Below are positions 718-37,767 of a stretch of DNA of 64,000 bases, in pieces. This DNA comes from a virus. The position numbers and the translations under genes were made by a program. Location: positions 64,001 through 128,000 of IMG/VR virus record IMGVR_UViG_3300032229_000533; one strand, written 5' to 3'. The number at the start of each line of letters is the position of its first letter. Position 1 is the first letter of the stretch. Under the pieces are notes generated by a model, which ran no database searches, had not been told where the DNA came from, and worked only from the letters and a program-made list of their open reading frames with translations.

Positions 718-2388
718 TTATGACTCTTTTCTTAAACTTCTTTCATAATGGTCAAACCTATCATGTTCAGTTGGGGTCATAAGTAATAACCCAGGATGTA
801 ATTCACCTTTTTTAACTAACTGATACATGTGACTCATCCATGTTTGTTCAAACGGGTGAGCCCAAGTTGTATCTAAAAACATTTTTTGATTACCTGTTCT
901 GCTTACAATCTGAGGCCAATTACAATAATAAACTTCACCTGTCACATATGGTACCCCTTGATATGTGTTAACAGAATCATAAACAGCTCTTGGAGCATTT
1001 GGGTCTAACCCTTGTTCAGGTAATCTATTTTTACCTGGCCAATATTTTTGTCTAACATTTTGTGGAACGTTGTACCAAGACCATTGGGTACCGTTATCAC
1101 CAAAGAATTCACTATAGTTAAGTTTTAAAAAATCAAAGTTTTCTTTTTTAACAATCTGTAGTGTTTTTGAATATAAGTTTGGAACATATCTATTAAACCC
1201 ATTACGACACACCTTACATTCATGTGGATAAAAGAACATGTCATCTTCAAAAAATAAGTAAAAATCTAAATCAGTTTCATTTTGAAAATGTTCGGCAATC
1301 CATTGACGACCACCACAAATACCTAAATTATCTTTTTTAATATGTTCAAAACCATACTCTTCACATAATTTCAAATATTCCTCAGTGGTTGACAAATCAC
1401 TTGAATTATCTAATAAGAATTTTTTTGTTTTAGAAATATAATCCTTATCGTATGCATTCATAGAATCAATTAAAGTTCTGAATTGATTAGGACTATTAAA
1501 TGTTATAACGTATAAACCAACTTTGTTCGTATCTAAAGTATTTTCTACTTTGATAGTACTTTCAGATTTAGGTTTTAATTCATTATTCTTTAAGTCTTCA
1601 AAAAATTTACCAAATAACCCATTAGATTCAATTTCAAAATAATTAATTAAATCCGAATGAGTGTAACACATTATACTAAAAATTGATTCTTCAGTTCCCA
1701 TATAATTTTCATCTAATGTAGTTTTTAGAAAATTATAATAGATACCATTAATATCGCTAATACTATGTTTTGGACCACCAAAAAATCCACCTCTGGCAAC
1801 TTTATTAACTTTTGCTCCTGCAATTGAATTCAACTTATTAAATTCAAATCCATGTATTTCGTTTTCTGCTTCATATGGAAAACAAACAAAAGAAAATTTT
1901 GAAATATATTTAGATAAGTTATTTAAAACTTTATCATGTGTAAAATATCCAGGATGAACCGTATTAGTTAGACCTGCGTCTATCCAAAACATCATTTCAG
2001 AATCAAATGGGTCCATGATTCTTGCATCGTTTAATAGAAACATTTTAGACATTACTAAAGGGTTATACATCTCTAATTTTGCCTGTGTTGATTCTGATAA
2101 CCACCCCGCCAAATTATACCAATCAGGGTTGGTTCTTATTTCTTGAATTTTATTGTAAAATTCATTTTTAAACCATTCTTGACTTCTATTAACAAATAAA
2201 GTATTTTCACGACTTCTTCTTTCAAAAACAAATGATTCTAATTCAGAATCACCAAAAATAATCATTGGATTATCAACTTTTAAAAGTTCTTCAAATTTAT
2301 TTAAATAGTGTTGAAATGAACGAGACCACCCTTGAGTAAGTCCGTCTCTTTTAATATTCCAAAGTCCTGTTACTAATGTTATTCCCAT
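718..2388 (-). CDS. two-domain glycosyltransferase (HtrL/YibB-like N-terminal + GT-A/GT2-like C-terminal)
   Basis: N-terminal ITLVTGLWNI...F.WIDAG typical of the HtrL/WlaTC family; C-terminal half has GICGGRQW and FFEDD (DxD-like) motifs. Confidence 0.7.
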   Translation of the reverse strand: MGITLVTGLWNIKRDGLTQGWSRSFQHYLNKFEELLKVDNPMIIFGDSELESFVFERRSRENTLFVNRSQEWFKNEFYNKIQEIRTNPDWYNLAGWLSESTQAKLEMYNPLVMSKMFLLNDARIMDPFDSEMMFWIDAGLTNTVHPGYFTHDKVLNNLSKYISKFSFVCFPYEAENEIHGFEFNKLNSIAGAKVNKVARGGFFGGPKHSISDINGIYYNFLKTTLDENYMGTEESIFSIMCYTHSDLINYFEIESNGLFGKFFEDLKNNELKPKSESTIKVENTLDTNKVGLYVITFNSPNQFRTLIDSMNAYDKDYISKTKKFLLDNSSDLSTTEEYLKLCEEYGFEHIKKDNLGICGGRQWIAEHFQNETDLDFYLFFEDDMFFYPHECKVCRNGFNRYVPNLYSKTLQIVKKENFDFLKLNYSEFFGDNGTQWSWYNVPQNVRQKYWPGKNRLPEQGLDPNAPRAVYDSVNTYQGVPYVTGEVYYCNWPQIVSRTGNQKMFLDTTWAHPFEQTWMSHMYQLVKKGELHPGLLLMTPTEHDRFDHYERSLRKES

Positions 2389-2407
2389 AAATTATTGTAT
2401 ATATGTT

Positions 2408-3355
2408 TTATAAAAAAATATTAAAATCGTCAAGAAAAGAAACGATTGTTTTAAATTGATTCTCAGGTAGACAATTATTAATAAACCATCTTTTTGATTC
2501 CTGAATCATATCATTATATTGGTTAGTCATACTAAACTCTAAAATCTCATTAACTTTTTCATCAATTATTGAATCAACGTTTTCTTTAGATAAAATTTTT
2601 TGTACCAAATCATCATTTATAAATTCAACATAATGAACATCCTTTATAATTGGTTCATAGGTTTTAGAATTAAGAGGTTGTCTCAAGTTTAAAACCCCGA
2701 GGCCAAATAATTCCAAGTCTCTATAACAAATGTTTGCAGCGCCATTTAAACTTAGCCCAAATCTGTGTTTAGAAACTTCATCATAATAGTCTTTCTTTTG
2801 TCTAAAATGTTCAGGGTTACCTTTTGTTCTAATATTAAAAAACGAATTATTTGATAATGAATTTAAAACATTTTCCCTAATACCGTGATTCAACCCGTTA
2901 AAATATGCTTTGTTGTCTTTAATTGATTGAGATTCAGTTGAAATTATGTATTCAATGTCTTTCCAATTTTCAACGTAATATACTGAAGGTTGTACAATAA
3001 TTTTATCTTTATACTCATCAATGATTGAATCGGTTAAATTAGAAACGCAAGAAAATTTAACAACATTAAAATTATTAGTTACAGAATATTTTAATATTTC
3101 AGGTGCATAGTCATACCAACTATGTACAAAAAATTTATCAGTAGTTTGATTGTAAATTACAAGGTTATACCAATTAAAAATATTACCTGTTTGATTGTTT
3201 AATGTTTTACCAAATCTGTGAGATAAATCACGTAAAGAAACATACTCAAATTGGATATTTGTTATTTCAGATAATTGTTTATGAAAATATTTGTAAAATT
3301 CACTAACATACCAATTATTATATCCTTGTTCGTACGATATGATTAATTTGTCCAT
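2408..3355 (-). CDS. putative GT-B glycosyltransferase
   Basis: C-terminal YYDEVSKHRFGLSLNG...CYRDLELFGLG pattern as in Glyco_trans_1_2/exostosin-like domains; lies in a glycan cluster. Confidence 0.55.
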   Translation of the reverse strand: MDKLIISYEQGYNNWYVSEFYKYFHKQLSEITNIQFEYVSLRDLSHRFGKTLNNQTGNIFNWYNLVIYNQTTDKFFVHSWYDYAPEILKYSVTNNFNVVKFSCVSNLTDSIIDEYKDKIIVQPSVYYVENWKDIEYIISTESQSIKDNKAYFNGLNHGIRENVLNSLSNNSFFNIRTKGNPEHFRQKKDYYDEVSKHRFGLSLNGAANICYRDLELFGLGVLNLRQPLNSKTYEPIIKDVHYVEFINDDLVQKILSKENVDSIIDEKVNEILEFSMTNQYNDMIQESKRWFINNCLPENQFKTIVSFLDDFNIFL

Positions 3356-4215
3356 TATTTTTCAGTTGCGTGTACCGTACCTGCTCTAGGTCCTGTTTTA
3401 TATCCATTAGGTGTAAAAACTTTACTCCATATAGGATGAGAATACGAAATATCTAAATCTTTAAATCCTGCGGTTAATGCTGATACTCCAATTTCAAAAC
3501 CTTCTGCCCAAGTACCAAAAGTATAATCTTTGTTATTTAAATAATCATAAAACCATTTCCATTGTTCTACCATTTTATTTAATTTACCGTTATTGTTATA
3601 AAAGATTATAAGATATTCTGAAGGAAATGATGCTTCACCCCACTTGTGGTTCTCACCTTCAACAACTTGATTGATATTTGTATCCACCAAATCATAGTTA
3701 AATAATTTATGCCATGCAAGTGTACACAAATCATAATCTAATGAGTCGGTGTGTGGATTTTTCTTACAAAATGTGTTGTATTTTGATATCAAATTTTTAA
3801 ACTTGAGTCCTGTTCTTGGTGCAAAATAATCATAACCATTTTCAAAATTTGTTTTAACAAAGTTTAAAACTTGTTCTTTATCCCACCAGTCAAAAGAATT
3901 ATCACAATCCGTAAAAATAATGATTGCGTCATCAATATTTTTTACATGGTCTAAACACAAATATCTCATGTTAAAATTAAAATCACGAGCACCTTTATTT
4001 GGTCCAATAGGTAACGAAACTTTTAAATCTTCACGTTTAATTTCGTTATATTTGATTCTATCTGAATTACCATATTTTTCTTCAATTAAATGTCTACAAT
4101 CAGTAGTTATGTACATTTCAATATCAGTTAAAGATAAAACATCTTCAATCATTCGTAGTGTGTAATCTTTAGTGTAATTTTCACCAAAGCTTAAAGTTGT
4201 TATTATTATTTTCAT
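3355..4215 (-). CDS. putative GT-A nucleotide-diphospho-sugar transferase
   Basis: IIIFTDCD DxD motif after a beta strand, FNFNMRY and EGFEIGVSA segments; cluster context. Confidence 0.5.
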   Translation of the reverse strand: MKIIITTLSFGENYTKDYTLRMIEDVLSLTDIEMYITTDCRHLIEEKYGNSDRIKYNEIKREDLKVSLPIGPNKGARDFNFNMRYLCLDHVKNIDDAIIIFTDCDNSFDWWDKEQVLNFVKTNFENGYDYFAPRTGLKFKNLISKYNTFCKKNPHTDSLDYDLCTLAWHKLFNYDLVDTNINQVVEGENHKWGEASFPSEYLIIFYNNNGKLNKMVEQWKWFYDYLNNKDYTFGTWAEGFEIGVSALTAGFKDLDISYSHPIWSKVFTPNGYKTGPRAGTVHATEK

Positions 4216-5099
4216 ATTACAATATTTGTTAGTTTAACTTTTTTTATGTTTATAGGATACCAATTAAATAAACTTGTATAACTCATATCTCCACAATAGT
4301 ATATGTTTTTACATTTACTTAATATTATTAATTCCCCAACAACATACAATGCTTCATCAATAGTTTGTCCAAACCTAACAAATCCAGTTGATATATAATT
4401 TGGGCTATGATTTTCTAAATCACGATACATTTTAATATCTAAATTAGTTTCTGAAAATACTTTTTTCACAAAACTAGAATTTGAACATATAAAATATTTT
4501 TTGTTTGGGTTTAAAGTTTCAACTAAACGGTTTTTAAAATTCAAAATTCGTTCAGAGTTGAGGGGAGGTAACGAGCGATAATATATAGATTCAAAATCTT
4601 CTTCAAAATTATCGGAAATAAATTTATTTACATTATTTACAATATCTTTATTAAAGACATCAAAATCTTTTGCTCTGTCGTCATTATCGTTAAATGTAAA
4701 ATCAATAAATGGTATGTTTAAATTTTTAACCTCATCATAGTTACTTGTTGGCACATACACATCAAAAATTCCGTTAGTGTCATTGAATACGTCATTATTC
4801 CTACCTGAATACAATCTCTTATATTCAATATCACCGTATGTTGAAAACCCATTTACGGATACAAATAAATTATCTTTATTTAAAATTTTAAATTCATCAA
4901 AAAACTCATTGAAAAAATCAATATTTAATACTTCCTCTAAAGTTTTAACATTGTACTTATCATTTATAAGTAAAATGAATTGAAAATTTGTGTATTGATT
5001 TTTTAAAAAATCAACACAATTAACAATATCAAACACACTTAAAAATGTGTCTCCCCATCCATTTTCAAAACTGAATTTAAATAAGATTTTATTATTCAT
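4212..5099 (-). CDS. putative fucosyltransferase-like GT-B enzyme (GT11/GT23/O-FucT-like)
   Basis: N-terminal GWGDTF loop, central YYRS, and C-terminal ELIILSKC...S.F, matching the FucT-type fold signature. Confidence 0.5.
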   Translation of the reverse strand: MNNKILFKFSFENGWGDTFLSVFDIVNCVDFLKNQYTNFQFILLINDKYNVKTLEEVLNIDFFNEFFDEFKILNKDNLFVSVNGFSTYGDIEYKRLYSGRNNDVFNDTNGIFDVYVPTSNYDEVKNLNIPFIDFTFNDNDDRAKDFDVFNKDIVNNVNKFISDNFEEDFESIYYRSLPPLNSERILNFKNRLVETLNPNKKYFICSNSSFVKKVFSETNLDIKMYRDLENHSPNYISTGFVRFGQTIDEALYVVGELIILSKCKNIYYCGDMSYTSLFNWYPINIKKVKLTNIVI

Positions 5100-5650
5100 T
5101 AATTATTTTTTTTCTTGAATGCACAGTAGTAATAATAGTGAGTACCCATATCAATTGGGATTTTTAATTCTTTACCGTTAAGATTAATCATTTCTAACAT
5201 TGGATAATGTTCTGCCATAATGGCGTCATCCAAGTCTGGTTGTAAGTGAATTTCATATTTATTACCAAAAACTTCATCTTGAGGCAAATAATATGGAACA
5301 ACAACGATTAGTTCTCTACATTTGTCTTTTAACTTATTTAAAAGGTTCTTAGCATCTTCTCTTGATAAGTGTTCAAGAATATCACCCATAATAATAATGT
5401 CATAATATTCAAACTCAAAATCTAATATGTTAACGTTGAATACGTTATCGTACATTTCGGTTAATTTATATTCCTCAATATAAGGTTCCCAAACTTCAAC
5501 CGCATCAAATTTTTTGAAGTAATCACCTAATAGTTTAATGTAGAATCCGTGACCACAACCAATGTCTAATATTGAACATGTTGGTTCAAAGTTTTCGGTT
5601 AAGTATTGTTTGACATCTGGGCCTAAATAACCCCAATTTCCTGGCATCAT
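5099..5650 (-). CDS. class I SAM-dependent methyltransferase
   Basis: ILDIGCGHG motif I; YDIIIMGDILEHL motif. Confidence 0.9.
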   Translation of the reverse strand: MMPGNWGYLGPDVKQYLTENFEPTCSILDIGCGHGFYIKLLGDYFKKFDAVEVWEPYIEEYKLTEMYDNVFNVNILDFEFEYYDIIIMGDILEHLSREDAKNLLNKLKDKCRELIVVVPYYLPQDEVFGNKYEIHLQPDLDDAIMAEHYPMLEMINLNGKELKIPIDMGTHYYYYCAFKKKNN

Positions 5651-5654
5651 AGTT

Positions 5655-6524
5655 TTAATTTATAAATTTTTTTAGTTTATGTTTTATATTTTCATCTGAA
5701 TTTAAAATGTTATTAAGTATATCTTTAGAATTAACATTAGCTTCTAAAAATTTACCATGTCTAACAATCTCAATATAATCAATTAATAGAAAATCTGTAG
5801 ATAATGGTTTTTCATCTACATGATATGTGATTGGCGGATAGTGGTAACAGAAATTATTGAACCCATAATCAAAAAAGTTTTCTTTGTTTTCGTAAAAAGA
5901 AAAATTAAAAAACTCACTTAATTGTCTATTTTCACCTTTCTTGTTTAAGATATTGGTATTATCTAGTTGATGTAAAGTAAGTGATGGGTTGTGGGTTAAT
6001 AATTCTATTAGAGAAGATTTTTTCCAAACACATGGTTGTACTGAATACATATGTCGTGCAGTCACATCAAATTTATAAAAACATCCATCAGGAAACCCAT
6101 ATTCCGATAATGTTATATTTGGTTTTTCCCAATTAACCACAAAATTTTCAATGTGTTTTTGTGTACCCAAGGCTAAATAATCACCATTAATTTTATCTAA
6201 AATATTAATAATGTTATCAAATCTATTTTTATTTATTGGTGATTTAATTAGATAATCATCACACAAGAATAATATATAATCTTCAGGTATCTGATTTAAT
6301 GCGAATAATAAACTATCTCTAAAATGTGAACCATCACCTGAAAAATTAACATTTGAATCAATATAATTTACCCCATCAAATTTTTCATGTTGAGGTATTT
6401 TATTTGAAACAACATTAATTGTCTTGTTTAAATCTTTTGTGTTTTCTATTGTATAAGGCAGTGTTAGATACAATAAGTCAAAATAGTTTTCATTGGTAAA
6501 AACTACAAATGATATGTCTTTCAT
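5655..6524 (-). CDS. putative GT-A glycosyltransferase
   Basis: YILFLCDDY (DxD-like), YSVQPCVWKK, IVRHGK pattern seen in glycan-locus proteins. Confidence 0.55.
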   Translation of the reverse strand: MKDISFVVFTNENYFDLLYLTLPYTIENTKDLNKTINVVSNKIPQHEKFDGVNYIDSNVNFSGDGSHFRDSLLFALNQIPEDYILFLCDDYLIKSPINKNRFDNIINILDKINGDYLALGTQKHIENFVVNWEKPNITLSEYGFPDGCFYKFDVTARHMYSVQPCVWKKSSLIELLTHNPSLTLHQLDNTNILNKKGENRQLSEFFNFSFYENKENFFDYGFNNFCYHYPPITYHVDEKPLSTDFLLIDYIEIVRHGKFLEANVNSKDILNNILNSDENIKHKLKKFIN

Positions 6525-6526
6525 AT

Positions 6527-7885
6527 TTATTTTTTATTTTCTAAATAAAAGTTTAAGTCTTCTGGAGTACCTAAACCCCACATATTATTAACTTCGTAAA
6601 CTCTTATTTTTTTATTGTCTTCTACCGCTTGATTGAAAACAGGACATACATAAAATTCATTATTGACTCTAATATTTTTTTGAATCATTTGTTCGGCGTA
6701 TTTTACAAAATCTGAACCATGTTTCCAATAATAAAAACCAACCGTTGCGTTATCTGAAATTGGATTTTTTTCTGCAACTTCACTAACGTATCCATTGTCA
6801 TCTACTTTTGCAAAAGACCATTTAGGGTGAGTCGCTTTAAAAGTTACGATACCACCATCCGCGTCAGTCTCATTCATTTTATACATGAATTCATTTGAAT
6901 CCCATTCAACAAACTGGTCTGAGTTTGCAAAAAACAAAGGCGAGTTATTGTTAATATATTCTTTAGCTAATAATGCAGTACAAGCTGCTCCTTCTGTAAT
7001 ACCATCAACCTCAACAATTTTACAATTTGGGGTTATTAAATTTAAGAGTGTATCTAAATTATATTTTTCACGATGTGATTTTTGGACCACATAAATGTAA
7101 TTTGCGTTTATGTTTAGATTGTCAACCACAACTTGAATCATTGGTTTATTATGAACATCAATAAGAGGTTTTGGAAATGTGTAACCTGCTTGTTGAAATC
7201 TTGAACCCGCACCCGCCATTGGGATTAGTACATTTAAATTATTATCTTCCCATTTTGGTGTCATAATATTGTGTCCTGATTTTATTTCTAATATTTTTTT
7301 TGTTATGTTAATGTAGGTAACCTCAATCGGAGATTTTACTCTAAATACATGTGACTTACTTCTTGACGCAGCTAATAAACCGTAAGGAGAATCCTCAACA
7401 ATTAATGTTTCTTCAGGTAAACACCCTACCATAGATATTGCCTTCCAATAAATTTCAGGATGTGGTTTTGAATTTTTTACATCTTCGTTTGAAAGTATTA
7501 AATCAAAAAACTCAATAATACCCAACTTACTCAAAACAGTTAAAACAGTTTTTCTAATACTATTAGAACATACCGCTAATTTATAACCTTCATTAACCAA
7601 CATAGTCATTGTTGTTACCAAATCAGGGTTATATTTTAAAGTTCTTAACGATTGTAATGTATAGGTTTGTTTATTGTCCCAAATCTCTTTAAATTTTTCT
7701 TTAGGTAAACCTTTTCGTTCATGTAACATATCTAATTTTTGATTGGTTTTTAAACCATCATAAATTGATAAATGTTCATCCCAAGTGATAGAATAATCAC
7801 CTAACGCTTTATTTAAAGATTCATAATGAATTTCTTTAGCGTCAACCAATACACCATCTAAATCAAATATTATTGTTTTAATCAT
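6527..7885 (-). CDS. HAD phosphatase fused to sugar-phosphate nucleotidyltransferase
   Basis: N-terminal FDLDGVL, KPHPEIY and VEDSPYG (HAD motifs); C-terminal IPMAGAGSRF...PKPLI, NSDQ and GLGTPEDL (NTP-transferase). Confidence 0.9.
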   Translation of the reverse strand: MIKTIIFDLDGVLVDAKEIHYESLNKALGDYSITWDEHLSIYDGLKTNQKLDMLHERKGLPKEKFKEIWDNKQTYTLQSLRTLKYNPDLVTTMTMLVNEGYKLAVCSNSIRKTVLTVLSKLGIIEFFDLILSNEDVKNSKPHPEIYWKAISMVGCLPEETLIVEDSPYGLLAASRSKSHVFRVKSPIEVTYINITKKILEIKSGHNIMTPKWEDNNLNVLIPMAGAGSRFQQAGYTFPKPLIDVHNKPMIQVVVDNLNINANYIYVVQKSHREKYNLDTLLNLITPNCKIVEVDGITEGAACTALLAKEYINNNSPLFFANSDQFVEWDSNEFMYKMNETDADGGIVTFKATHPKWSFAKVDDNGYVSEVAEKNPISDNATVGFYYWKHGSDFVKYAEQMIQKNIRVNNEFYVCPVFNQAVEDNKKIRVYEVNNMWGLGTPEDLNFYLENKK

Positions 7886-8312
7886 TATATCTTTTTATAA
7901 AGTCTGAGCATACACCCAAACATTTTGAAATGTCGTCATTATGTATTTCAGGCATAACCGCAATACTTCCAGTTATAGGTTGTTTACCAGGATATACCCA
8001 CATATAATTTTTAGATGTTAATGTTAGTGTATCTTGTTCATGCCAAAAATAATGTAATGAGGTACTTCTAATCCAATTTAAAGATTCAACATTCTTACAA
8101 TGAATCCATAATTTATCAACTCTTTCACCTAACCACTCATCACTAACTTCATATTGTGGTTCATCGTGTCCTAAATAAACTTTACCATCAACCCACCATA
8201 AGTCAACTTCAACATCGTATCCTTCAGCAATAGCTTCCATAATATAATATGGTGAGTTTTCTCTAACCTCATTAGGACCGTTTAAATTTCCTCTATGTGA
8301 AATTAATATCAT
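7878..8312 (-). CDS. PLC-like/GDPD-like phosphodiesterase domain protein
   Basis: ISHRGN, DVEVD, LGHDEP and WIHCKN motifs of the short GDPD-like family. Confidence 0.75.
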   Translation of the reverse strand: MILISHRGNLNGPNEVRENSPYYIMEAIAEGYDVEVDLWWVDGKVYLGHDEPQYEVSDEWLGERVDKLWIHCKNVESLNWIRSTSLHYFWHEQDTLTLTSKNYMWVYPGKQPITGSIAVMPEIHNDDISKCLGVCSDFIKRYND

Positions 8313-9577
8313 TAACTCACGGTATTATGTGTTAATTGACCTGTAATTCTATCACACCATCCTTTTGATTCTGAGTGAGGCCAAACCACCCAATGTGAAG
8401 GTAACTCATCAGTTTGAAATTCTCTCCATACCTTACAATATTTGTCAGGGTCTCTCATGAAACCTGCAATTTCATTTTTGTCTGCGTCTTTACGGAACAA
8501 TGTTTTATCGTCTTTACCATGGAATGCAACAACCCAAAAATCATAATCAGTTTCAGGAACTTGAGAATATCCGATATCAATACAATGTTTGAACATCATA
8601 CAAAAACTATCTCTCCATTCTTGTTCTGTTTCAAAATTATATGGGTTAGGAGGATAATTTTTATCTAAAGTATATTTGTCAATTGCTCTTTTTGAAAAGA
8701 GAATACCAGCATATTTTTCATAATCTGTTAAACTTCTAACAGGACCAAAACCATAAGGACCATCATGACCTTCTTGAGTTTCACCATCCATACCAAATAA
8801 TTTTCTATTTGTTAAGTGCGAATGACTATTTTTTTGTCCCCAAGTTTTATCATCATCCCATTGTTTTGTTCTACCTTTACGAGTGTACTCATGATAAACA
8901 ACAGGAATATGTGGATGGAATAAATCATAACCCCAAGTGTAAGCTCTTGCAGCGATTGAAATCTCTTCACCGTGGAAATAATATTCAGGATTGTGTTGAA
9001 CTTCGGTTGAGAATTGACCTAATGTGAAACAGAAGTGAGCAGAATAGAATCTTGCAGTTACAGGTTTTGTCATCTCTTTCCAACCTGGAATTGTTTCAGG
9101 TAAGAAGAACACAGCTCCTTCAGGAATGAATCGGTCAAACACCATTCTCCAAGCATCGGTTGCTCTTCCTGCTGGGTCGTTCTCGGGGTCAAAAGAAGGA
9201 ACGTAGCCCGTAAGTAGAGGCTTTTTATAACCGTCCTTCTGTAACCCCTTTATCATCTTGATAAGGATGTCATCCCAATCCTTAACAAATCTCATGTGAG
9301 AATCAATTTGTAATGTGTACGTTTCACCTTTATAAAGTTGTTGAACTTGGTGTCTTGCCCAACATACACCTTTGGCATCTTGATATGGAATATCTAAGAT
9401 TCTAAATCTTTTGTCATTTTTATATTCATCTAAGTTATCAAATCCGTCTTCAGGACTATATTGTCTAGCAATACCGATAACAAGGTTATTTGGTTTTTTG
9501 GCATTTGCCAACATGTCTTTAATAGTAGGAACCAACTGAGGGTCTCTGTAAGATGCTATTTGAACGAATATTTTCAT
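8312..9577 (-). CDS. GT60-family (GlcNAc transferase, Skp1/polypeptide alpha-GlcNAc-T-like) glycosyltransferase
   Basis: IFVQIASYRD, GVCWAR, YTLQIDSHMRF, FHGEEISIAARAYTWGYDLFHP and VYHEY match the conserved GT60 blocks. Confidence 0.85.
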   Translation of the reverse strand: MKIFVQIASYRDPQLVPTIKDMLANAKKPNNLVIGIARQYSPEDGFDNLDEYKNDKRFRILDIPYQDAKGVCWARHQVQQLYKGETYTLQIDSHMRFVKDWDDILIKMIKGLQKDGYKKPLLTGYVPSFDPENDPAGRATDAWRMVFDRFIPEGAVFFLPETIPGWKEMTKPVTARFYSAHFCFTLGQFSTEVQHNPEYYFHGEEISIAARAYTWGYDLFHPHIPVVYHEYTRKGRTKQWDDDKTWGQKNSHSHLTNRKLFGMDGETQEGHDGPYGFGPVRSLTDYEKYAGILFSKRAIDKYTLDKNYPPNPYNFETEQEWRDSFCMMFKHCIDIGYSQVPETDYDFWVVAFHGKDDKTLFRKDADKNEIAGFMRDPDKYCKVWREFQTDELPSHWVVWPHSESKGWCDRITGQLTHNTVS

Positions 9578-11130: not shown

Positions 11131-11144
11131 AATTTTATTTTATA

Positions 11145-11152
11145 TATAAATA
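11145..11152 (-). promoter_or_regulatory. TATTTATA motif (putative late promoter)
   Basis: 14 nt upstream of ATG 11130. Confidence 0.6.
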
Positions 11153-11161
11153 TAAAGAAAT

Positions 11162-11192: not shown

Positions 11193-11229
11193 CTAAAATA
11201 TATTGGTATTGTTTTTTTTTTATTAAAAA

Positions 11230-11871: not shown

Positions 11872-11888
11872 CTTAAATTCTGTTTAAA

Positions 11889-17321: not shown

Positions 17322-17324
17322 CTT

Positions 17325-17332
17325 TATAAATA
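17325..17332 (-). promoter_or_regulatory. TATTTATA motif
   Basis: 3 nt upstream of ATG 17321. Confidence 0.55.
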
Positions 17333-17346
17333 TTGAATCGTTATTT

Positions 17347-29072: not shown

Positions 29073-29798
29073 ATGATTAAAATAGTTAGTTGTTTTTGGA
29101 ACGCAGAGAAATATATTGAGAATTGTATTAGAACACTTAAAAATCAAAAAAGTATAGATTTTCAAGTGTATTTAATTGATGACATGTCAACAGATAATTC
29201 CGTAAGTGTTGTAAAAGAATTAATTGGTAATGATTCAAGATTTAAATTAATTGTTAACACAGAAAAAAAATTTAAATTAAAAAACTTAGATGACCTAATC
29301 AGTACATTTGATGATGAGGATATTGTGGTGGAATTAGATGGTGACGATTTTTTACTTGGTGATGATGTTATTACCGAAATAAAACAAATGTATAGTAATA
29401 AAAATGTTTGGTTAACAAACGGTTCTTTTATGTATACAAACGGTAATAACGGATTTTCATCAAAGGCTGACTGCAAAAACATAAGAACTTCAGTATTCAC
29501 ATTTTCGCATTTGAGAACGTGGAAATCTTTTCTATGGAAATCAATCCCAAAAGAATATTTTATGGATTTAAATGGTCAATATTTTAAATCCGCATCTGAC
29601 GTTGCGTATTCAATACCTCTTTTAGAATTGTCAGGTGAAGAACACTATAGATTTAATCCAAAAATATTATATGTTTATAATGGAGACTCACCATATAATG
29701 ACCATAAAGAAGGAAGCGCAACAGGTGGTTTATCCGAACAATCTAGAAGTGCTAACATTATACGAAACAAACCAAAATTAAATAAATTAATTAGATAA
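29073..29798 (+). CDS. GT2 glycosyltransferase
   Basis: LIDDMSTD and VELDGDD DxD motif. Confidence 0.9.
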   Translation: MIKIVSCFWNAEKYIENCIRTLKNQKSIDFQVYLIDDMSTDNSVSVVKELIGNDSRFKLIVNTEKKFKLKNLDDLISTFDDEDIVVELDGDDFLLGDDVITEIKQMYSNKNVWLTNGSFMYTNGNNGFSSKADCKNIRTSVFTFSHLRTWKSFLWKSIPKEYFMDLNGQYFKSASDVAYSIPLLELSGEEHYRFNPKILYVYNGDSPYNDHKEGSATGGLSEQSRSANIIRNKPKLNKLIR

Positions 29799-29803
29799 AA
29801 AAT

Positions 29804-30646
29804 ATGAAAGGATTAACTAGTTTAGAAATTTTACATCATCATAATGGTAGGTTTGGAAACCAATTATTTAGAATTGGTACTATCATTGGTGAGTCATTAA
29901 AAAGAAATGTTGAGTATTACATACCGAGTGAATGGGAACACTCTAATAAATTCCCAAATTTAAAAAATGTTATTTCAGTTAATGAAATTAGACCAAAAAT
30001 AACATCTAACCACAGAGAATCAAAATTTGGATATCATAATATACCTGACACTCAAGGAATATTGGAAATTACGGGATATTTTCAATCTTGGAAATTTTTT
30101 GAAGAATTTGAAAATGAAGTTAGAAATTCTTTATCGTTTTCAGACGAGTTAATTGAAAAAGCGGCATCAAGAATGTCTAAAGACACTATTAAACTTTGTC
30201 TCCATGTTAGATGGGGGGACATTTATGATAGAAAAACAAATGGTGGACACAAAGGGGTTGAAAATTTTCATCCTGTAATGACCCTTCAATATTATGAAAA
30301 TGCCCTAAATCTTATATTAAGTGAAACTAAAATTGATGAGATTTTGGTTTTTACCGATAATGTAGACACAAAAGAATTTATTGAAGGCAAATTTGAAAAA
30401 TTTGGTGTTAAAGTTATTTATTTTGACTATAGTGACGATTTTATTAATGACTTTATTTGTCAAAGTCTTTGTGACCATTTTATAATTGCAAATAGTACTT
30501 TTTCATGGTGGGCATCATTTCTAAGTAAAAATGAAAACAAAATTGTTTGTTGTCCAAAAGAAGAAGATTGGTTTGGACCATCTTATCGTAATTTGGATAG
30601 AAGCACTCTATTGCCTTTAAATTGGAAAAGAATATCTCAAAATTAA
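29804..30646 (+). CDS. GT11 alpha-1,2-fucosyltransferase-like
   Basis: GRFGNQLF, GYFQSWKFF, LHVRWGD, CDHFIIANSTFSWWASFL. Confidence 0.92.
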   Translation: MKGLTSLEILHHHNGRFGNQLFRIGTIIGESLKRNVEYYIPSEWEHSNKFPNLKNVISVNEIRPKITSNHRESKFGYHNIPDTQGILEITGYFQSWKFFEEFENEVRNSLSFSDELIEKAASRMSKDTIKLCLHVRWGDIYDRKTNGGHKGVENFHPVMTLQYYENALNLILSETKIDEILVFTDNVDTKEFIEGKFEKFGVKVIYFDYSDDFINDFICQSLCDHFIIANSTFSWWASFLSKNENKIVCCPKEEDWFGPSYRNLDRSTLLPLNWKRISQN

Positions 30647-30647
30647 T

Positions 30648-31379
30648 ATGAATAAAATTTTACTTGAAAACATTGATTTTAAATGTATCAGTTTACTTAA
30701 AAGAACTGATAGAAGAGAATGGGTTGATTCACATTTAAAAACATTTAACATCCCTTTTGAATATTTTGACGCACTGTCATCAAACGATAATCGTACCAAT
30801 ATTAAATTTTTACAAGGTATTAAATCAGGTAATATTGGTTGTACATTATCTCACTATAATTTAATTAAAAATTATGAAGGGGAAAAAATACTCGGTATTT
30901 TTGAAGATGATGTATTACTATGTGAAGATTTTAATGAAAGATTCTCATATATAGAAAATAATTTTAATCTTGATTGGGATATATTTTTCTTATCTTCTTT
31001 CTACCATTTAAATGACGATAAAAATAGATGGAACCAAACAGGTGATTTTGAGTTCACCGATATTAAATACATTCATAGAGTTTATGGGTCATTCTGTACT
31101 CATTCATATTTGGTAAATCCAAAGTCTAAAGATAAAATCATTAAATTAATGGAGGAAAATTTTAATAGGTCTTATGCAATAGACCATCTGTATATTTTAA
31201 TCCAACCTAAACTTAATTGCTTTTCATTTACACCAGGATTAGCAAATCAAATTGTTAGTAGCAGTGACATTGATGGTGTAGTTAAAAACCAAAATTCTTT
31301 TGAACAAACAGTTGGACCACATTATTTTGTAAATAACTTAAAAGATTTTGATTATGACAAATACTTTAAATTAAAATAA
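30648..31379 (+). CDS. GT25 glycosyltransferase
   Basis: ISLLKRTDRR, IGCTLSH, IFEDD, THSYLV, AIDH. Confidence 0.88.
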   Translation: MNKILLENIDFKCISLLKRTDRREWVDSHLKTFNIPFEYFDALSSNDNRTNIKFLQGIKSGNIGCTLSHYNLIKNYEGEKILGIFEDDVLLCEDFNERFSYIENNFNLDWDIFFLSSFYHLNDDKNRWNQTGDFEFTDIKYIHRVYGSFCTHSYLVNPKSKDKIIKLMEENFNRSYAIDHLYILIQPKLNCFSFTPGLANQIVSSSDIDGVVKNQNSFEQTVGPHYFVNNLKDFDYDKYFKLK

Positions 31380-31380
31380 T

Positions 31381-32115
31381 ATGAATAATATTTCAAACCA
31401 AATAAAAAAATACATTTTAAAAGTAGAATCTGCAACCTACATAATTAACAATTATGATTATTTTACATCACAGTATAACCTACCTAGTGATAAAGAAATT
31501 AATCTTCCCGATGACTATAGAGTTTTATTAAATTTAACCAAAAAAGTATCTAAAGATAAGTCAATTATTGATATCGGAGGTAATTGCGGTTTATATTGTA
31601 TACCAGTTGCAAAAGAGGGGTACCAAGTTTTTACATTTGAACCAATTAACATGAATGTAGAGTTATTAAAATTAAATAAAGTTATAAATAATTGTGATAA
31701 TCTTACAATAATACAAAAGGCATTATCAAATAATAACAATAAAAAGAAAATTTTTATACCATATTGTTCTGATAACACATCATTTAATTTGTCTGTTGCA
31801 ATTAGTAATATGAAGATTAAAGATTATGTTGAAGAGGTTGTTAGTTGTCAAACATTTGATAGTTGGATTAATAAAAATAAAGATGTTAATGTTGGATTTA
31901 TAAAAATTGATGTTCAGGGATATGAAAAAGAAGTTTTAGAGGGGATGCAAAAATTTCTTAATAAATGTAATGATGTTTATATATTCATTGAATGGGATGA
32001 AAAACATACCACCCAAGCAGGGTCGTCTTTGGATGAATTAGAAAGATTAATAACTTCAAATGGGTTTACCGCACTTGAACAAATTTTTGGAGATAAATTA
32101 TTTTATAAAAATTAA
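31381..32115 (+). CDS. FkbM-family methyltransferase
   Basis: IDIGGNCGLY, FEP, IKIDVQGYE. Confidence 0.9.
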   Translation: MNNISNQIKKYILKVESATYIINNYDYFTSQYNLPSDKEINLPDDYRVLLNLTKKVSKDKSIIDIGGNCGLYCIPVAKEGYQVFTFEPINMNVELLKLNKVINNCDNLTIIQKALSNNNNKKKIFIPYCSDNTSFNLSVAISNMKIKDYVEEVVSCQTFDSWINKNKDVNVGFIKIDVQGYEKEVLEGMQKFLNKCNDVYIFIEWDEKHTTQAGSSLDELERLITSNGFTALEQIFGDKLFYKN

Positions 32116-32121
32116 GATACA

Positions 32122-32802
32122 ATGGAACATATAACATATAACAAAATATTAATATCTTATCCAATATACCAAATACCTAAAATTATTGAATTACCTCATC
32201 AAAAAAGATGGGAGGACGATAATGGAGATTTTACTAAAATTTTAGATTACCCTATAGACAGTACATCGCAAGTTATTGAGCTAGGTGGATACATTGGAGA
32301 ATGGACTGAAAAAATAGTTAATAAGTTTAACCCAAAACTTTTAATCATTGAACCAATACCAATGTTTGTAAAACAACTAAAAAGTAAATTTAGTGATAAC
32401 CCAAATGTTATTATTGATAATTCTGCAATATCAACTTCAAACAAAAAAATAGAATTACATGTATTAGACTCTAGAACTTCAGAATCAATTAAAGTTTCTA
32501 ATAATAAAATAAAAGTTAAAGCGTATAACATTGAACATTTTATTGAAAAATACAATTTAAATAAAATTGATTTAATACAAGTTAATATAGAATGTGAAGA
32601 ATACCCTTTATTATTACATTGGATTAACACAGATTTTTTGAAAAATGTAAGATTTATTCAAATACAATTTCACACATTTTGTGATAACTACGAGGAAAAT
32701 TATTCTATCATTAGTGAAGGTCTTAAAAATTTAGGATTTGAAATTAGATATAGATATGATTTTGTTTGGGAATCATGGGAAAATAAAAATTTTAATAAAT
32801 AA
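32122..32802 (+). CDS. FkbM-family methyltransferase
   Basis: IELGGYIG, IEP, IDLIQVNIECEEY, QIQFH. Confidence 0.85.
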   Translation: MEHITYNKILISYPIYQIPKIIELPHQKRWEDDNGDFTKILDYPIDSTSQVIELGGYIGEWTEKIVNKFNPKLLIIEPIPMFVKQLKSKFSDNPNVIIDNSAISTSNKKIELHVLDSRTSESIKVSNNKIKVKAYNIEHFIEKYNLNKIDLIQVNIECEEYPLLLHWINTDFLKNVRFIQIQFHTFCDNYEENYSIISEGLKNLGFEIRYRYDFVWESWENKNFNK

Positions 32803-32805
32803 ATT

Positions 32806-33186
32806 ATGATTACAATACCTGTTAGTGTTGGAGAATTAATTGATAAATTATCAATCCTTCACGTAAAAAAAATAAAAATAAATAACACAGAAAAATTAGT
32901 ACACGTTAATAGAGAATTTGAACTATTATATAATTTTTCTTCAGTTTATTTAAACAACGAAGAAATATCAAAATTATACCATGAATTGGTTGATACTAAC
33001 TCAAAACTATGGGAAATTGAAGATATGTTAAGAGTTATTGAAACTGAGAAAAATTTTGATTCAAAATTTATTGAACTTTCAAGAAGTGTGTATCACACGA
33101 ACGATAAAAGATTCAGTTTAAAAAACGAAATAAACGAAAGAACTTCTTCTGAAATTAGAGAAGTCAAAGAATATGTAGAATATTAA
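32806..33186 (+). CDS. DUF6165-like protein
   Basis: IPVSVGELIDKLSIL...LWEIED...VYHTNDKRF..K.EIN pattern common in glycan loci. Confidence 0.75.
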   Translation: MITIPVSVGELIDKLSILHVKKIKINNTEKLVHVNREFELLYNFSSVYLNNEEISKLYHELVDTNSKLWEIEDMLRVIETEKNFDSKFIELSRSVYHTNDKRFSLKNEINERTSSEIREVKEYVEY

Positions 33187-33188
33187 TT

Positions 33189-34268
33189 ATGAAAAAAATA
33201 TTAGTTCTTGGTGGTGGCGGATTTATTGGAGGTCACTTAGCAAAAAAACTAAAAGATGAAGGCAACTGGGTTAGAGTTGTTGATATTAAAAAACACGAAT
33301 ATTTCACTGAAGATGAAATGTGTGATGAGTTCTTAACTTATGATTTACGTGACCCAAGAAATGTGGAAGCGGTCATTAGGTTAGAACAATTTGGAGATGA
33401 ATTTAGAAAAAATAACATATTACCATTTTCATATCTTAAACAACCTTATTCCGAGTTGGTGCCTTTTGATGAAGTTTATCAACTTGCCGCGGATATGGGT
33501 GGAGCTGGATATATTTTTACAGGAGAACACGATGCAGATGTTATGCATAACTCGGCGATGATTAACTTAAATGTCGCTAAAGAATGTGTTAACTATGGTG
33601 TTAAAAAAGTGTTCTACTCATCATCAGCATGTATGTACCCTGAACATAATCAATTAGACCCAACCAACCCAAATTGTGAAGAGTCTTCTGCGTATCCCGC
33701 AAACCCTGACTCAGAATATGGTTGGGAAAAATTGTTCTCTGAAAGACTATTTTTATCATTTCATAGAAACTATGGATTAAATGTTAGAATCGCAAGATTC
33801 CATAACATCTTTGGACCAATGGGAACTTGGAAAGGTGGTAAAGAAAAATCACCTGCAGCAATGTGTAGAAAAGCGGCTGAAGCTAAAGACGGAGATGTTA
33901 TTGAGGTTTGGGGTGATGGAAAACAAACACGTTCATTTCTTTACATTGATGATTGCGTTGAAGCAGTACAAAGATTAATGGATAGTGATTTTATCGGTCC
34001 TGTTAATATTGGTAGTGAAGAGATGGTTACAATTAACCAATTAGCGGGAATAGCAATTGCAATTTCAGATAAAGATTTAAACATTAAAAATATTGATGGT
34101 CAGGATTTTATTGACAAATATGGGTTTAAATGTCCTTTAGGCGTTAAAGGTAGAAACTCAGATAATAGATTATATAAAGAAAAAATAGGTTGGGAGGTAA
34201 ATCAACCATTATCAATCGGTCTTAAAAAGACATATGAGTGGATTAAATCTCAAGTTGAGAAATCATAA
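33189..34268 (+). CDS. GDP-mannose 3,5-epimerase-like NAD-dependent epimerase
   Basis: GGGGFIG, QLAADMGGAGYI, SSSACMYPE, AYPANPDSEYGWEKL, EKSPAAMCRK, WGDGKQTRSF are GME-type signatures. Confidence 0.88.
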   Translation: MKKILVLGGGGFIGGHLAKKLKDEGNWVRVVDIKKHEYFTEDEMCDEFLTYDLRDPRNVEAVIRLEQFGDEFRKNNILPFSYLKQPYSELVPFDEVYQLAADMGGAGYIFTGEHDADVMHNSAMINLNVAKECVNYGVKKVFYSSSACMYPEHNQLDPTNPNCEESSAYPANPDSEYGWEKLFSERLFLSFHRNYGLNVRIARFHNIFGPMGTWKGGKEKSPAAMCRKAAEAKDGDVIEVWGDGKQTRSFLYIDDCVEAVQRLMDSDFIGPVNIGSEEMVTINQLAGIAIAISDKDLNIKNIDGQDFIDKYGFKCPLGVKGRNSDNRLYKEKIGWEVNQPLSIGLKKTYEWIKSQVEKS

Positions 34269-35906: not shown

Positions 35907-36959
35907 ATGGATACATCGTTAAACGAAAAAGTAAAACAATCAATTCAGAATCTAAAAGATAAGAACTCAAGAATTTATTTTCTTATTCAAGATACTAAGG
36001 GTAACGCAAAAGCGTCAGTTAGATTAATTTATCAAATGGCAAAGTCGCTATTGGATGCAGGATTTAATCCTATAATTCTCCATGAGAAAAAAGAATATGC
36101 TGGAGTTGTTGCTTGGCTTGACGAAGAATATATGTCAATTCCTCACAGAGCAATTGAAGGTCAAAACTTAGAGATTGCACCTGAAGATTTTATTGTTGTA
36201 CCTGAAGTATTTGGGTATGTTATGGAACAAATTAAAAACTTACCTTGTGGTAAAATAGTTTTTACTCAAAACTACAATCACATTGTTGAAACTCTACAAC
36301 CTGGTCAAAATTGGGCACAATATGGATTTTTTAAATGTTTAACAACTACTACAAAACAACAAGAATATATTGAAACTGTAATGAGACAATCAAGTTTTGA
36401 TATTATTAAACCTTTAATTACTGACAGTTTTTATCCAAAAAACCTACCTCCAATGCCAATTATTGGTGTTCACACTAAAGACCAATCAGATACGATTAAT
36501 ATAATTAAAACGTTCTATTTGAAATTCCCACAATACAGATGGTTTACATTTAGAGATTTAAGAGGTCTTTCTGAAAAAGAATTTGCAAACTCATTGAGAG
36601 ATTGTTTTGTTAGTGTTTGGATTGACGATGAAAGTGGTTTTGGTACTTTCCCATTAGAATCTATGGCGTCAGGAGTACCTGTTATTGGTAAGGTTCCAAA
36701 TATTCAACCTGAATGGATGAATGACGATAATGGTGTTTGGATTACAAACAAAACACTAATATGTGATTTTATTGCGGATTATATCCAAAATTGGTTGGAA
36801 GATAATATCAAAACTGAACTTTATGAAAACATGAAGAAAACAGTTGAAAACTACACAAATAAACAAGAATTTGACTCTACTGTAATTTCGTTATTTGAAA
36901 ATTACCTAAACGTAAGAGCAGAATCATTTGAACAACAAATATCTAAAACAGAAGAATAA
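35907..36959 (+). CDS. GT-B glycosyltransferase
   Basis: IVVPE, ESGFGTFPLESMASGVPVIG (GT4-type EG.G...LEAMA.G.PVI). Confidence 0.85.
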   Translation: MDTSLNEKVKQSIQNLKDKNSRIYFLIQDTKGNAKASVRLIYQMAKSLLDAGFNPIILHEKKEYAGVVAWLDEEYMSIPHRAIEGQNLEIAPEDFIVVPEVFGYVMEQIKNLPCGKIVFTQNYNHIVETLQPGQNWAQYGFFKCLTTTTKQQEYIETVMRQSSFDIIKPLITDSFYPKNLPPMPIIGVHTKDQSDTINIIKTFYLKFPQYRWFTFRDLRGLSEKEFANSLRDCFVSVWIDDESGFGTFPLESMASGVPVIGKVPNIQPEWMNDDNGVWITNKTLICDFIADYIQNWLEDNIKTELYENMKKTVENYTNKQEFDSTVISLFENYLNVRAESFEQQISKTEE

Positions 36960-36960
36960 T

Positions 36961-37767
36961 ATGAAAGAAAAATTATCACTATCCATTATACTACCTATTA
37001 AATCATCTAAATCTAGAGATTTTAATGAGTACTTTGAAAAAGCAATGAATTCAATTAAAACACAAACTGTTGATATTGAAGAATTAATAATTGTCCACAC
37101 ACCTGAAGAATCATTAGTTGAACATTTAAATGGTTATGATTTTGAATCGTTAAATGTTACAAAATTGTTATGGGATAAAGAACCTAGTTATGCGGAACAA
37201 GTAAATTATGGTATTAAGAACGCTAAAGGTACTTGGGTTTCATTATTTGAATTTGATGATGAGTATGCTTCAATTTGGTTTAAAAATGTTAAAAAATACA
37301 TTGAATCTTTCCCTGAAACTCAAGTATTTTTACCCGTAGTGGTTGAAACTGACGAAAAAGGTTTATTCGCAGGATTTACTAACGAAGCAACATTTGCGGC
37401 AAATTTTAGTCAAGAAATGGGATTCTTAACTAATGAAACTTTACAAGAATATCAAAATTTCCAAACAGCTGGTGCGGTTATTAAAAAACAAATTATTGAA
37501 GATTTTGGAGGATTTAAACCTTCAATCAAATTGACTTTTGTTTATGAGTTTTTATTAAGATTAACTTACAATTCTGTGTCAATTATGACAATACCTAAAC
37601 TTGGGTATAAACATACCAACATGAGAGAAGGTTCTATTTTTTGGAATTATAAATTTGGTGAAAACAAAATGTTAGAAGATGAGGTTAAATTTTGGGTTCA
37701 AACTGCAAAGAAAGAATTTTTCTTTGTTGACGATAGGGTCATAAAATATCAATCAGAAAATGGATAA
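36961..37767 (+). CDS. GT2-like glycosyltransferase
   Basis: Start at MKEK (36961); SIILP, VNYG, LFEFDDE DxD region. Confidence 0.75.
   Translation: MKEKLSLSIILPIKSSKSRDFNEYFEKAMNSIKTQTVDIEELIIVHTPEESLVEHLNGYDFESLNVTKLLWDKEPSYAEQVNYGIKNAKGTWVSLFEFDDEYASIWFKNVKKYIESFPETQVFLPVVVETDEKGLFAGFTNEATFAANFSQEMGFLTNETLQEYQNFQTAGAVIKKQIIEDFGGFKPSIKLTFVYEFLLRLTYNSVSIMTIPKLGYKHTNMREGSIFWNYKFGENKMLEDEVKFWVQTAKKEFFFVDDRVIKYQSENG

Follow-up and report, generated by a model that had tools for sequence, protein, structure and literature searches.

The 64,000-nucleotide stretch of viral DNA analyzed here (the window; positions 64001-128000 of the 182,339-bp IMG/VR record IMGVR_UViG_3300032229_000533, with "genome" coordinates referring to the whole record) probably encodes a cytoplasmic, mucin-type O-glycosylation system that acts on threonine/proline (Thr/Pro) tracts of the phage's own proteins. 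The proposed initiator is a soluble, polypeptide-type glycosyltransferase (GT) of family GT60 (PF11397), encoded at 8312..9577 on the minus strand, and the candidate acceptors are encoded upstream of it on the same strand. That an initiating polypeptide GT acts on cytoplasmic Thr/Pro tracts had been proposed in a first-pass annotation of the window, and is well supported by the predicted fold of GT60, by recurrence of the GT60-tract linkage in phages, by bacterial genomes in which the single tract gene is located beside GT60, and by Schiff-positive virions of the GT60-bearing Xanthomonas phage XacN1.

GT60 as the candidate initiating enzyme

The GT60 protein matches the GlcNAc (N-acetylglucosamine) model PF11397 with 226.2 bits against a curated cut-off of 21 (E 1.1e-66) and carries the motif D92-S93-H94, in which D and H are invariant across 14 homologues, including a paralogue of 31% identity. 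Searches of the PDB by sequence returned nothing useful for GT60. An AlphaFold2 (AF2) model built from 14 homologues (pLDDT 87.8) was compared with known structures in two ways. The top Foldseek matches of this model in the PDB are all GT27 polypeptide N-acetylgalactosamine (GalNAc)-transferases, and a VIA search of 48,161 chains, which is independent of Foldseek, ranks mouse GalNAc-T1 (Z 20.9) and Toxoplasma GalNAc-T3 (TgGalNAc-T3; Z 20.0) ahead of the next GT-A enzymes by approximately 4 units (Z 16.4). The best VIA superposition (Z 20.9) covers 279 residues with a root-mean-square deviation of 3.7. The VIA matches are confined to residues 1-324, and the model places residues ~325-414 in a beta-rich domain. 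We assign the product of 8312-9577 to CAZy family GT60, with a DxH-bearing GT-A fold that, according to the model, is related to that of the GT27 polypeptide GalNAc-transferases (ppGalNAc-Ts).

All characterized GT60 enzymes are polypeptide alpha-GlcNAc-transferases: those that start mucin-type glycans in Dictyostelium and T. cruzi, and Gnt1, a cytoplasmic enzyme acting on Skp1 (PMC8724618, PMC6939170). The family is set apart from GT27 by the absence of a C-terminal ricin-type lectin domain (PMC8724618). The phage enzyme resembles its protist counterparts in the PF11397 match, the DxH motif, the modelled GT-A fold nearest to GT27, and a likely Thr/Pro-rich acceptor, and, like Gnt1, it is predicted to be soluble and cytoplasmic. 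In contrast to the protist enzymes, the phage and bacterial proteins have an additional C-terminal beta-strand-rich domain of ~100 residues, and their genomic partners are an HtrL-like two-domain protein and, in many cases, a carbamoyltransferase.

Linkage of GT60 and Thr/Pro tracts in phages

Two scans of IMG/VR define the phage comparison. The first gave 265 matches, of which 80, each at least 85% identical to the window GT60, were kept as close relatives; the second, ranked on the XacN1 protein, gave at least 564 matches, from which 80 diverse loci (43-72% identity) were kept. The 160 loci were clustered at 80% identity into 48 lineages. Among close relatives whose contigs extend 3 kb or more upstream of GT60, same-strand tract open reading frames (ORFs) occur within that 3 kb in 53 of 54. 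At the level of lineages, a same-strand tract is located no more than 3 kb upstream of GT60 in 15 of 48, and tracts are located within 10 kb in 27 of 48. When one representative is taken per lineage, the proportion of lineages with a tract is 27-28% per kb in the 2 kb before GT60 and 3-6% at a distance of 8-10 kb, and no lineage has one in the first 3 kb downstream.

Named phages rarely encode GT60: it was found in 4 of 50,697 records, all from Xanthomonas or Stenotrophomonas jumbo phages. The three named phages with the nearest capsid proteins (42-45% identity; uncultured phage genome LR756508, Microcystis phage Mel-JY01, and Flavobacterium phage vB_FspM_immuto) have no GT60 match and no TPTPTP-coding sites, of which the present phage has 15, XacN1 29, and CM1 19. 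In XacN1, the genes for GT60 (ORF334), a carbamoyltransferase (ORF333), and an HtrL-like protein (ORF330) are grouped, with identities to the window phage of 46, 31, and 42%, respectively. A GT9 gene and a gene for a 3313-residue protein are nearby; the latter follows the baseplate wedge genes and contains the Pro/Ser/Thr linker PSPSPTPTPTTTPQLSPTPTPTP. Purified XacN1 virions yielded at least two Schiff-positive bands, which the authors tentatively attributed to the phage GTs (PMC5852040).

Linkage of GT60 and Thr/Pro tracts in bacteria

Among the individual lines of evidence, the bacterial linkage is the strongest. Species-representative genomes were scanned, and the GT60 module was identified in the chromosomes of Jiulongibacter sediminis (on a 1.3-Mb contig), Arcticibacterium, a Cytophagaceae metagenome-assembled genome, and three Gemmatimonadota. 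The order in Jiulongibacter is UDP-glucose dehydrogenase, epimerase, a second GT60, and a 262-residue Thr/Pro protein, with GT60, a carbamoyltransferase, and an FkbM-HtrL fusion encoded divergently. Whole-genome searches for TPTPTP-coding sites placed all five sites of J. sediminis (4.5 Mb) and all eight sites of Arcticibacterium (5.2 Mb) in a single gene beside GT60. PF11397 is rare in bacteria, being present in 1 of 401 sampled Bacteroidota genomes (that of Jiulongibacter itself). In the family of Jiulongibacter, 151 sampled genomes comprise 7 with GT60, 11 with a tract cluster, and 4 with both (Fisher p 5e-4), and in all four of the latter the tract gene is within 2 kb of a GT60 gene.

On a Gemmatimonadaceae chromosome, a PqqD-domain protein ending in a Thr/Pro tract is encoded immediately upstream of GT60-HtrL (L095:9230-9955). 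This protein consists of a PqqD/RRE-type domain (Pfam 32 bits, cut-off 23.4), an Arg-rich and hydrophobic segment, and then the tract; the fusion of a peptide-recognition domain to a candidate glycosylation substrate is unusual. The Thr/Pro proteins of Cytophagales (L096:8941-9729, L100:8645-9625, and L187:5888-6916) share the N-terminal segment KGLNRRLA(L/I)(R/K)ELFLGSS and a conserved C-terminal domain of ~60 residues. This N-terminal segment may act as a short anchor or as a signal of the Tat-like kind.

Thr/Pro-tract proteins

The four Thr/Pro-tract genes that had been noted in the window are all evident in the sequence, at 9655-11130, 11230-11871, 14076-17363, and 17347-17916, and two more are encoded beyond the window (genome 4453-6036 and 6438-9482), where they adjoin baseplate-like genes and the gene for a 1473-residue collagen-repeat protein. 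The six proteins together contain 1,084 tract residues, of which 526 are Ser/Thr. The gene nearest to GT60 (9655..11130, minus strand) encodes a 66-residue N-domain, a tract at residues 65-121, a middle domain, a second tract at residues 197-250, and an LRR-like C-terminus, with weak matches to LRR_4 and phrog_21719. Its N-domain is conserved in the loci of 71 relatives and is 92% identical to that of the adjacent protein (11230..11871, minus strand), in which the N-domain is followed solely by a 151-residue Thr/Pro/Gln tract encoded by imperfect tandem DNA repeats. The largest member (14076..17363, minus strand) is a 1095-residue protein with six Thr/Pro tracts (377 residues) between globular domains, including two LamG/ConA-like lectin domains (Pfam Laminin_G_3, E 7e-31), and its C-terminus matches phrog_8510, annotated as "virion structural protein". 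The fourth (17347..17916, minus strand) is a 189-residue protein conserved across relatives, with a Cys-containing N-domain, a 48-residue Thr/Pro tract, and a C-domain; its AF2 model was unusable (pLDDT 41.6). Aligned over 14 relatives, this protein shows invariant Thr and Pro positions in its tract, with variation in the residues between them.

The tracts are maintained at the protein level, because the DNA repeats are imperfect with varied codons and the Thr and Pro positions of the 189-residue protein are invariant. Slippage of DNA as the mere origin of the tracts was ruled out on the same grounds, the repeats having 62-92% matches in Tandem Repeats Finder (TRF).

Two further genes complete the cluster. 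A 699-residue Asn/Gly-rich repeat protein (11951..14050, minus strand) has no tract and no Pfam or PHROG match, and was found in 2 of 80 relatives. The first gene of the cluster (17922..19820, minus strand) encodes a conserved 632-residue protein, which is fused to a Thr/Pro stalk in some relatives (956-1309 residues). It has an Atlas lead to LamG_3 clusters, no PHROG match, and no PDB match by sequence.

The tract proteins share a common build of a conserved ~66-residue N-terminal domain, variable stalks, and distal domains of the LamG/lectin, LRR, or Ig/SprB type, and one has a Hoc-like match. From this architecture, they are most likely particle-exposed fibres or decorations, for which the conserved N-terminal domain may serve as an anchor. 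Neither the capsid gene (47720-49525) nor the rest of the window from 20000 to 64000 contains a Ser/Thr/Pro tract.

The 1473-residue protein (genome 1-4419, L081:1-4419, minus strand) is truncated by the contig edge and contains ~1,000 residues of Gly-Thr-Ser, Gly-Ser-Ser, and Gly-Thr-Asp collagen repeats. This putative collagen-like fibre may be a second acceptor, since the GT25 of the phage and the PLOD-type GT domains of its relatives belong to collagen-glycosylating families.

The HtrL-like partner and the first variable island

The conserved partner of GT60 is a 556-residue protein (718..2388, minus strand) with an HtrL_YibB domain at residues 3-250 (Pfam) and a C-terminal EDD-motif domain, in which E381-D382-D383 are invariant. 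Of the close GT60 loci, 75 of 80 encode it, as do 67 of 80 of the diverse loci, and its full-length identity is 58% to the Arcticibacterium protein and 42% to XacN1 ORF330. Neither single-sequence nor profile searches found a PDB relative.

The genes for GT60 and the HtrL-like protein flank an island whose content of GT and methyltransferase genes is hypervariable. In 75 relatives, the gene order is the 632-residue protein, tract genes, GT60, the variable island, the HtrL-like protein, a 125-residue protein, and PolB. The tract genes vary in number and length, with their ~66-residue N-terminal domains conserved, and the island occurs, over 76 related phages, in 14 arrangements drawn from 41 gene families; the commonest arrangement has two genes and is found in 56 of 75. 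Representatives of these families include GT10, GT11, GT25, GT7C, PLOD-type GT, RXYLT1, GT2, GT1, FkbM, CmcI, and other methyltransferases.

The island of the window (2408..8312, minus strand) has seven genes, none of which occurs in the 80 closest relatives; distant GT60 loci hold homologues of six of the seven, with none listed for 4212-5099. Three of the genes encode a class I methyltransferase (5099-5650; Pfam/NCBIfam), a fusion of a HAD/beta-PGM-like domain and a sugar-1-phosphate nucleotidyltransferase (6527-7885; Pfam/NCBIfam), and a 144-residue ORF (7878-8312). The remaining four (2408-3355, 3355-4215, 4212-5099, and 5655-6524) had zero matches in Pfam at E ≤ 10 and in NCBIfam, and they were accordingly dropped from the count of GTs. 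An Atlas lead connects 3355-4215 to GT8, and homologues of 2408-3355, 3355-4215, and 5655-6524 are present in other GT60 loci, which is indirect support only.

Block 2 and the inventory of glycan genes

A second block of glycan genes is encoded on the plus strand. In its conserved first part (22602..27139), a GT1-like gene (22602-23810; 24.1 bits in Pfam, below the cut-off of 26.4) and a two-domain GT2_5+GT4 gene (25514-27139) are interleaved with genes for an exonuclease, a dUTPase, and a HAD phosphatase, and these genes are conserved at 70-96% in 23 relatives. The next part (27915..34268; Pfam) begins with UDP-glucose dehydrogenase (27915-29072) and continues as a second variable island with GT2 (29073-29798), GT11 (29804-30646), GT25 (30648-31379), two FkbM methyltransferases, DUF6165, and a short-chain dehydrogenase/reductase (SDR)-type epimerase/reductase (33189-34268). 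The stretch from UDP-glucose dehydrogenase to PhoH differs among relatives, whereas the closing GT1 (35907-36959) and GT2 (36928-37767) genes are conserved at 75-94% identity. The conserved frame of block 2 comprises GT1, GT2_5+GT4, UDP-glucose dehydrogenase, PhoH, GT1, and GT2. Genes for NAD synthase (27139-27918) and PhoH (34289-35038) are also found inside the block, and NAD synthase is absent in approximately half of the relatives.

Block 2 is coupled to GT60 within this lineage only. The earlier view that both GT blocks build one branched glycan is not supported, given this lineage-limited coupling and the mixture of block 2 with dUTPase, NAD synthase, and PhoH. A contribution of block 2 to the tract glycan is conceivable.

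By Pfam, the window has nine GT genes with 10 GT domains, namely those of block 2 together with GT60 and HtrL_YibB. The large GT set described in the first-pass annotation is thus present, at a smaller size than the approximately 13 genes and 15 domains given there, and its family labels are recovered by Pfam for HtrL, GT60, GT2, GT4, GT11, and GT25, with the FucT-like label unconfirmed within the window. Its three methyltransferases (5099-5650, 31381-32115, and 32122-32802; Pfam) and three nucleotide-sugar enzymes (the HAD and nucleotidyltransferase fusion, UDP-glucose dehydrogenase, and the SDR epimerase/reductase) were all recovered. Further glycan genes are located beyond the window, including a NodU/CmcH carbamoyltransferase (genome 152308-153972, within L086, which spans genome 152308-163165) and a GT17-like gene (genome 162161-163165), and the same region encodes a DUF6445 protein (genome 160512-161093). 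A carbamoyltransferase gene is positioned between GT60 and HtrL in bacteria, XacN1, and some of the diverse GT60-bearing phage contigs.

In a crude hydropathy scan of the 190 ORFs of the 182-kb record, the GTs all lacked transmembrane helices and none of the ORFs appeared as a multi-pass membrane protein, in agreement with the earlier statement that the GTs lack membrane segments and that flippase and polymerase are missing. On the same scan, the record encodes no initiating polyprenyl-phosphate transferase, flippase, polymerase, or ligase.

Proposed pathway and alternative explanations

In the pathway that we consider probable, GT60 would transfer a first sugar from a UDP-sugar to the Thr/Ser hydroxyls of the tracts during infection, and by analogy with characterized GT60 enzymes this sugar would be an N-acetylhexosamine (HexNAc). 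The acceptors would be the four tract proteins of the window and the two encoded near the baseplate genes. The HtrL-like two-domain partner would extend the chain, and the GTs and methyltransferases of the strain-specific island would finish it, with donors provided by the nucleotide-sugar enzymes of the phage. The carbamoyltransferase encoded elsewhere in the genome may also tailor the glycan, and probably does so. Such a glycan would stiffen and protect the stalks and would differ between strains; a function as a glycocalyx or shield is speculation.

Several observations weigh against this pathway. The Schiff-positive bands of XacN1 were never assigned to particular proteins (PMC5852040). 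The GT60-tract coupling is strong and yet not obligate, because 21 of the 48 GT60 lineages have no tract within 10 kb in their flanks and tract clusters occur in 7 of 144 GT60-less genomes of Jiulongibacter's family. Moreover, the lineage counts are not independent events because the lineages share ancestry. PHROGs gave zero tail-fibre assignments among the tract proteins, none of which matches a known tail-fibre family, and the sole "virion structural" match is to a generic LamG domain. The tract proteins are putative virion proteins: only the second cluster, beyond the window, adjoins baseplate-like genes, and the cluster in the window is outside the tail module, next to PolB and further non-structural genes. 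Because soluble GTs can also act on lipid-linked acceptors provided by the host, the absence of membrane genes is no proof of a protein acceptor. Finally, the bacterial tract proteins carry Arg-Arg and a hydrophobic segment before the tract, which might place the tract outside the cytoplasm and away from a soluble enzyme; if these proteins are exported, a soluble GT60 would have to act before export.

The most serious alternative, which we regard as unlikely, is that the GT clusters remodel a host-surface polysaccharide (O-antigen, capsule, or lipid-linked glycan), for instance to block superinfection, and that the tracts are unglycosylated flexible linkers that happen to be encoded nearby. 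Polymorphic GT clusters with nucleoside diphosphate (NDP)-sugar enzymes in jumbo cyanophages have been interpreted in this way (PMC7824862), and both islands of the present phage are likewise polymorphic between close relatives. The content of block 2 fits this explanation as well, with LPS-type (lipopolysaccharide) families (GT25, GT11, GT2, FkbM, and UDP-glucose dehydrogenase) amid auxiliary metabolic genes and a coupling to GT60 confined to this lineage, and peripheral GTs do not need a transmembrane helix. GT60, however, is a polypeptide-directed family whose model is nearest to ppGalNAc-Ts, and host-surface modification explains neither the position of the sole Thr/Pro-tract gene of two 4.5-5.2 Mb bacterial genomes beside GT60 nor the positional peak immediately upstream of GT60 in the phage lineages. 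The steps from polyprenyl-phosphate transfer to ligation are also missing from the record, although the host could supply the membrane steps. Host-surface modification may well apply to block 2 alone.

It is less probable still that GT60 and its partners glycosylate proteins other than the tracts, with candidates in the capsid or tail tube, in the collagen-like fibre with its Gly-Thr-Ser repeats, or among host proteins. Mycobacteriophage glycans are reported to be placed on the C-termini of capsid and tail-tube proteins (summarized in PMC12619734). An acceptor other than the tracts would accommodate the 21 tract-less lineages, and the phage itself encodes the Ser/Thr-rich collagen-repeat protein of 1473 residues, together with a GT25 that, like the PLOD-type GTs of relatives, belongs to a collagen-glycosylating family. 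Gnt1, a characterized GT60, modifies a single hydroxyproline of Skp1; in the present phage no prolyl hydroxylase was identified, the DUF6445 protein being the sole candidate. The adjacency statistics favor the tracts, and the capsid protein has no Ser/Thr/Pro tail.

Glycosylation of phage DNA, for which one might cite a ThyA-like gene with an insertion (436 residues) and the phage GTs that Pyle et al. reportedly found to build glycans on hydroxymethyl-pyrimidines, is very improbable and was rejected as the principal explanation because the ThyA-like protein passes the NCBI thymidylate synthase model TIGR03284 (290 bits, cut-off 108), and it is further disfavored in that no TET/5mYOX or hydroxymethylase was seen in the ~61%-complete record, by the protein- or glycan-directed nature of GT60, GT10, GT11, and GT25, and by its failure to account for the Thr/Pro-gene linkage in phages and bacteria.

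Transcription signals, phage identity, and host

The motif TATTTAT occurs 11-50 nt upstream of the genes 9655-11130, 11230-11871, 11951-14050, and 17922-19820. The genome contains 111 copies, of which 53 are located 11-50 nt before gene starts, where 4.4 would be expected, and the motif is probably the main promoter element of the phage, judging from this distribution. The first-pass annotation had placed a late-type motif ahead of each tract unit, which agrees with the copies at 9655 and 11230 and disagrees with 14076 and 17347, where the genes lack a copy of their own. The label "late" is unproven because TATTTAT also precedes ~50 other genes, structural and not, and its use as a specific mark of late genes was rejected for the same reason. 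Examples are found in the intergenic regions 11872-11950, 11131-11229, and 19821-19873, the last of which is a divergent 53-bp region with one copy per strand; the copy for 17922-19820 overlaps a T4-like TATAAATA. Rho-independent terminators separate 11230-11871, 9655-11130, and GT60, and 9655-11130 has both its own TATTTAT copy and a terminator upstream.

The record has a G+C content of ~30% and an estimated completeness of ~61% (CheckV), and contigs of relatives reach 321 kb. It represents a large, uncultured lake phage of the tailed type, with genes for a T4-type major head protein, portal, and large terminase; when 22 kb of the window were compared with named phages by megablast, none matched. 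A Bacteroidota host is suggested because one phage protein carries SprB repeats and the glycosylation genes are 56-58% identical to Cytophagales counterparts. The "moraphage" lineage, which is aquatic, with predicted Bacteroidota hosts and four core GT groups (PMC12619734), was considered as a possible affiliation of the present phage.

The phage also encodes a ClpB-like AAA+ chaperone (63421-65436, plus strand), which is 43% identical to the ClpB that immediately follows the GT60 module of Arcticibacterium and of a related genome (L100:14714-17341 and L187:9996-12623). The thymidylate synthase homologue (genome 169953-171263, L087:1953-3263) has 436 residues, with ~100 additional residues within the Pfam domain: its residues 6-343 span profile positions 1-235 of 266. 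These additional residues may represent an intein or a further domain.

Relation to known systems and significance

Self-encoded glycosylation of capsids or fibrils is known in chloroviruses and mimivirus. These resemble the present phage in having their own cytoplasmic GTs, sugar-nucleotide enzymes, methyltransferases, and eukaryote-like families, and differ in being eukaryotic viruses whose acceptors are N-linked-like sites on Vp54 and fibril proteins. We know of no report of a GT60/Thr-Pro logic for them. O-glycosylation of mycobacteriophage virions was reportedly described by Freeman et al. in 2023. According to the summary in PMC12619734, mycobacteriophage GTs glycosylate the phage's own proteins in the host cytoplasm. 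Phage-encoded GTs are common to both, with the difference that the mycobacteriophage acceptors are C-terminal tails of capsid and tail-tube proteins, whereas the capsid here has no such tail and the candidate acceptors are extended Thr/Pro stalks located inside modular proteins of lectin type.

XacN1 shares with the present phage GT60, a carbamoyltransferase, HtrL-like proteins, and Pro/Ser/Thr linker proteins, and its virion proteins are Schiff-positive (PMC5852040), even though it is an unrelated high-GC jumbo phage with a gammaproteobacterial host. The GT family, the acceptor, and the link to tract proteins were left unnamed in that study (PMC5852040). O-antigen and capsule clusters, and the "capsular polysaccharide modification" clusters of jumbo cyanophages (PMC7824862), similarly have a conserved frame around a hypervariable set of GT and tailoring genes. 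Unlike these, the present system has no Wzx, Wzy, ABC transporter, initiating polyprenyl-phosphate transferase, or ligase, and a GT of polypeptide type forms its conserved flank.

Glycosylation of phage virions is in itself already known from the mycobacteriophage and XacN1 precedents. The pairing of mucin-like substrates with an initiating GT, which the first-pass annotation had taken to be new for phages, has no description that we could find in the literature on GT60 phages and jumbo-phage O-glycosylation. New in the present analysis are the test of whether the tract gene is unique within whole bacterial genomes, the positional profile resolved by lineage, the recognition of two hypervariable islands, the ranking of the GT60 model against known structures, and the link to XacN1 staining.

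Glycosylation of phage-particle proteins is known from few cultured phages, and little is understood of its enzymes or of what determines the acceptor. Here, a family known from protist mucin synthesis is found in at least 564 viral contigs, with a candidate acceptor adjacent and then a strain-variable glycan island. Xanthomonas phage XacN1 and Jiulongibacter sediminis JN14-9 are cultured systems that allow a direct test. If the proposed pathway is correct, abundant lake phages would bear mucin-like glycoproteins with strain-variable sugars, which would affect their adsorption, stability, grazing, and recognition. In addition, bacteria would possess a cytoplasmic mucin-type O-glycosylation route outside the known systems, and two or three genes would make a compact kit for dense O-glycosylation of Thr/Pro tracts in the bacterial cytoplasm. 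More tentatively, and with somewhat more doubt than confidence, a GT60-initiated cytoplasmic pathway may be common to some Bacteroidota and Gemmatimonadota and to hundreds of freshwater phage lineages, in which it would decorate the stalks of virion fibres, the islands giving rise to strain "glyco-serotypes" as a viral counterpart of O-antigen variation.

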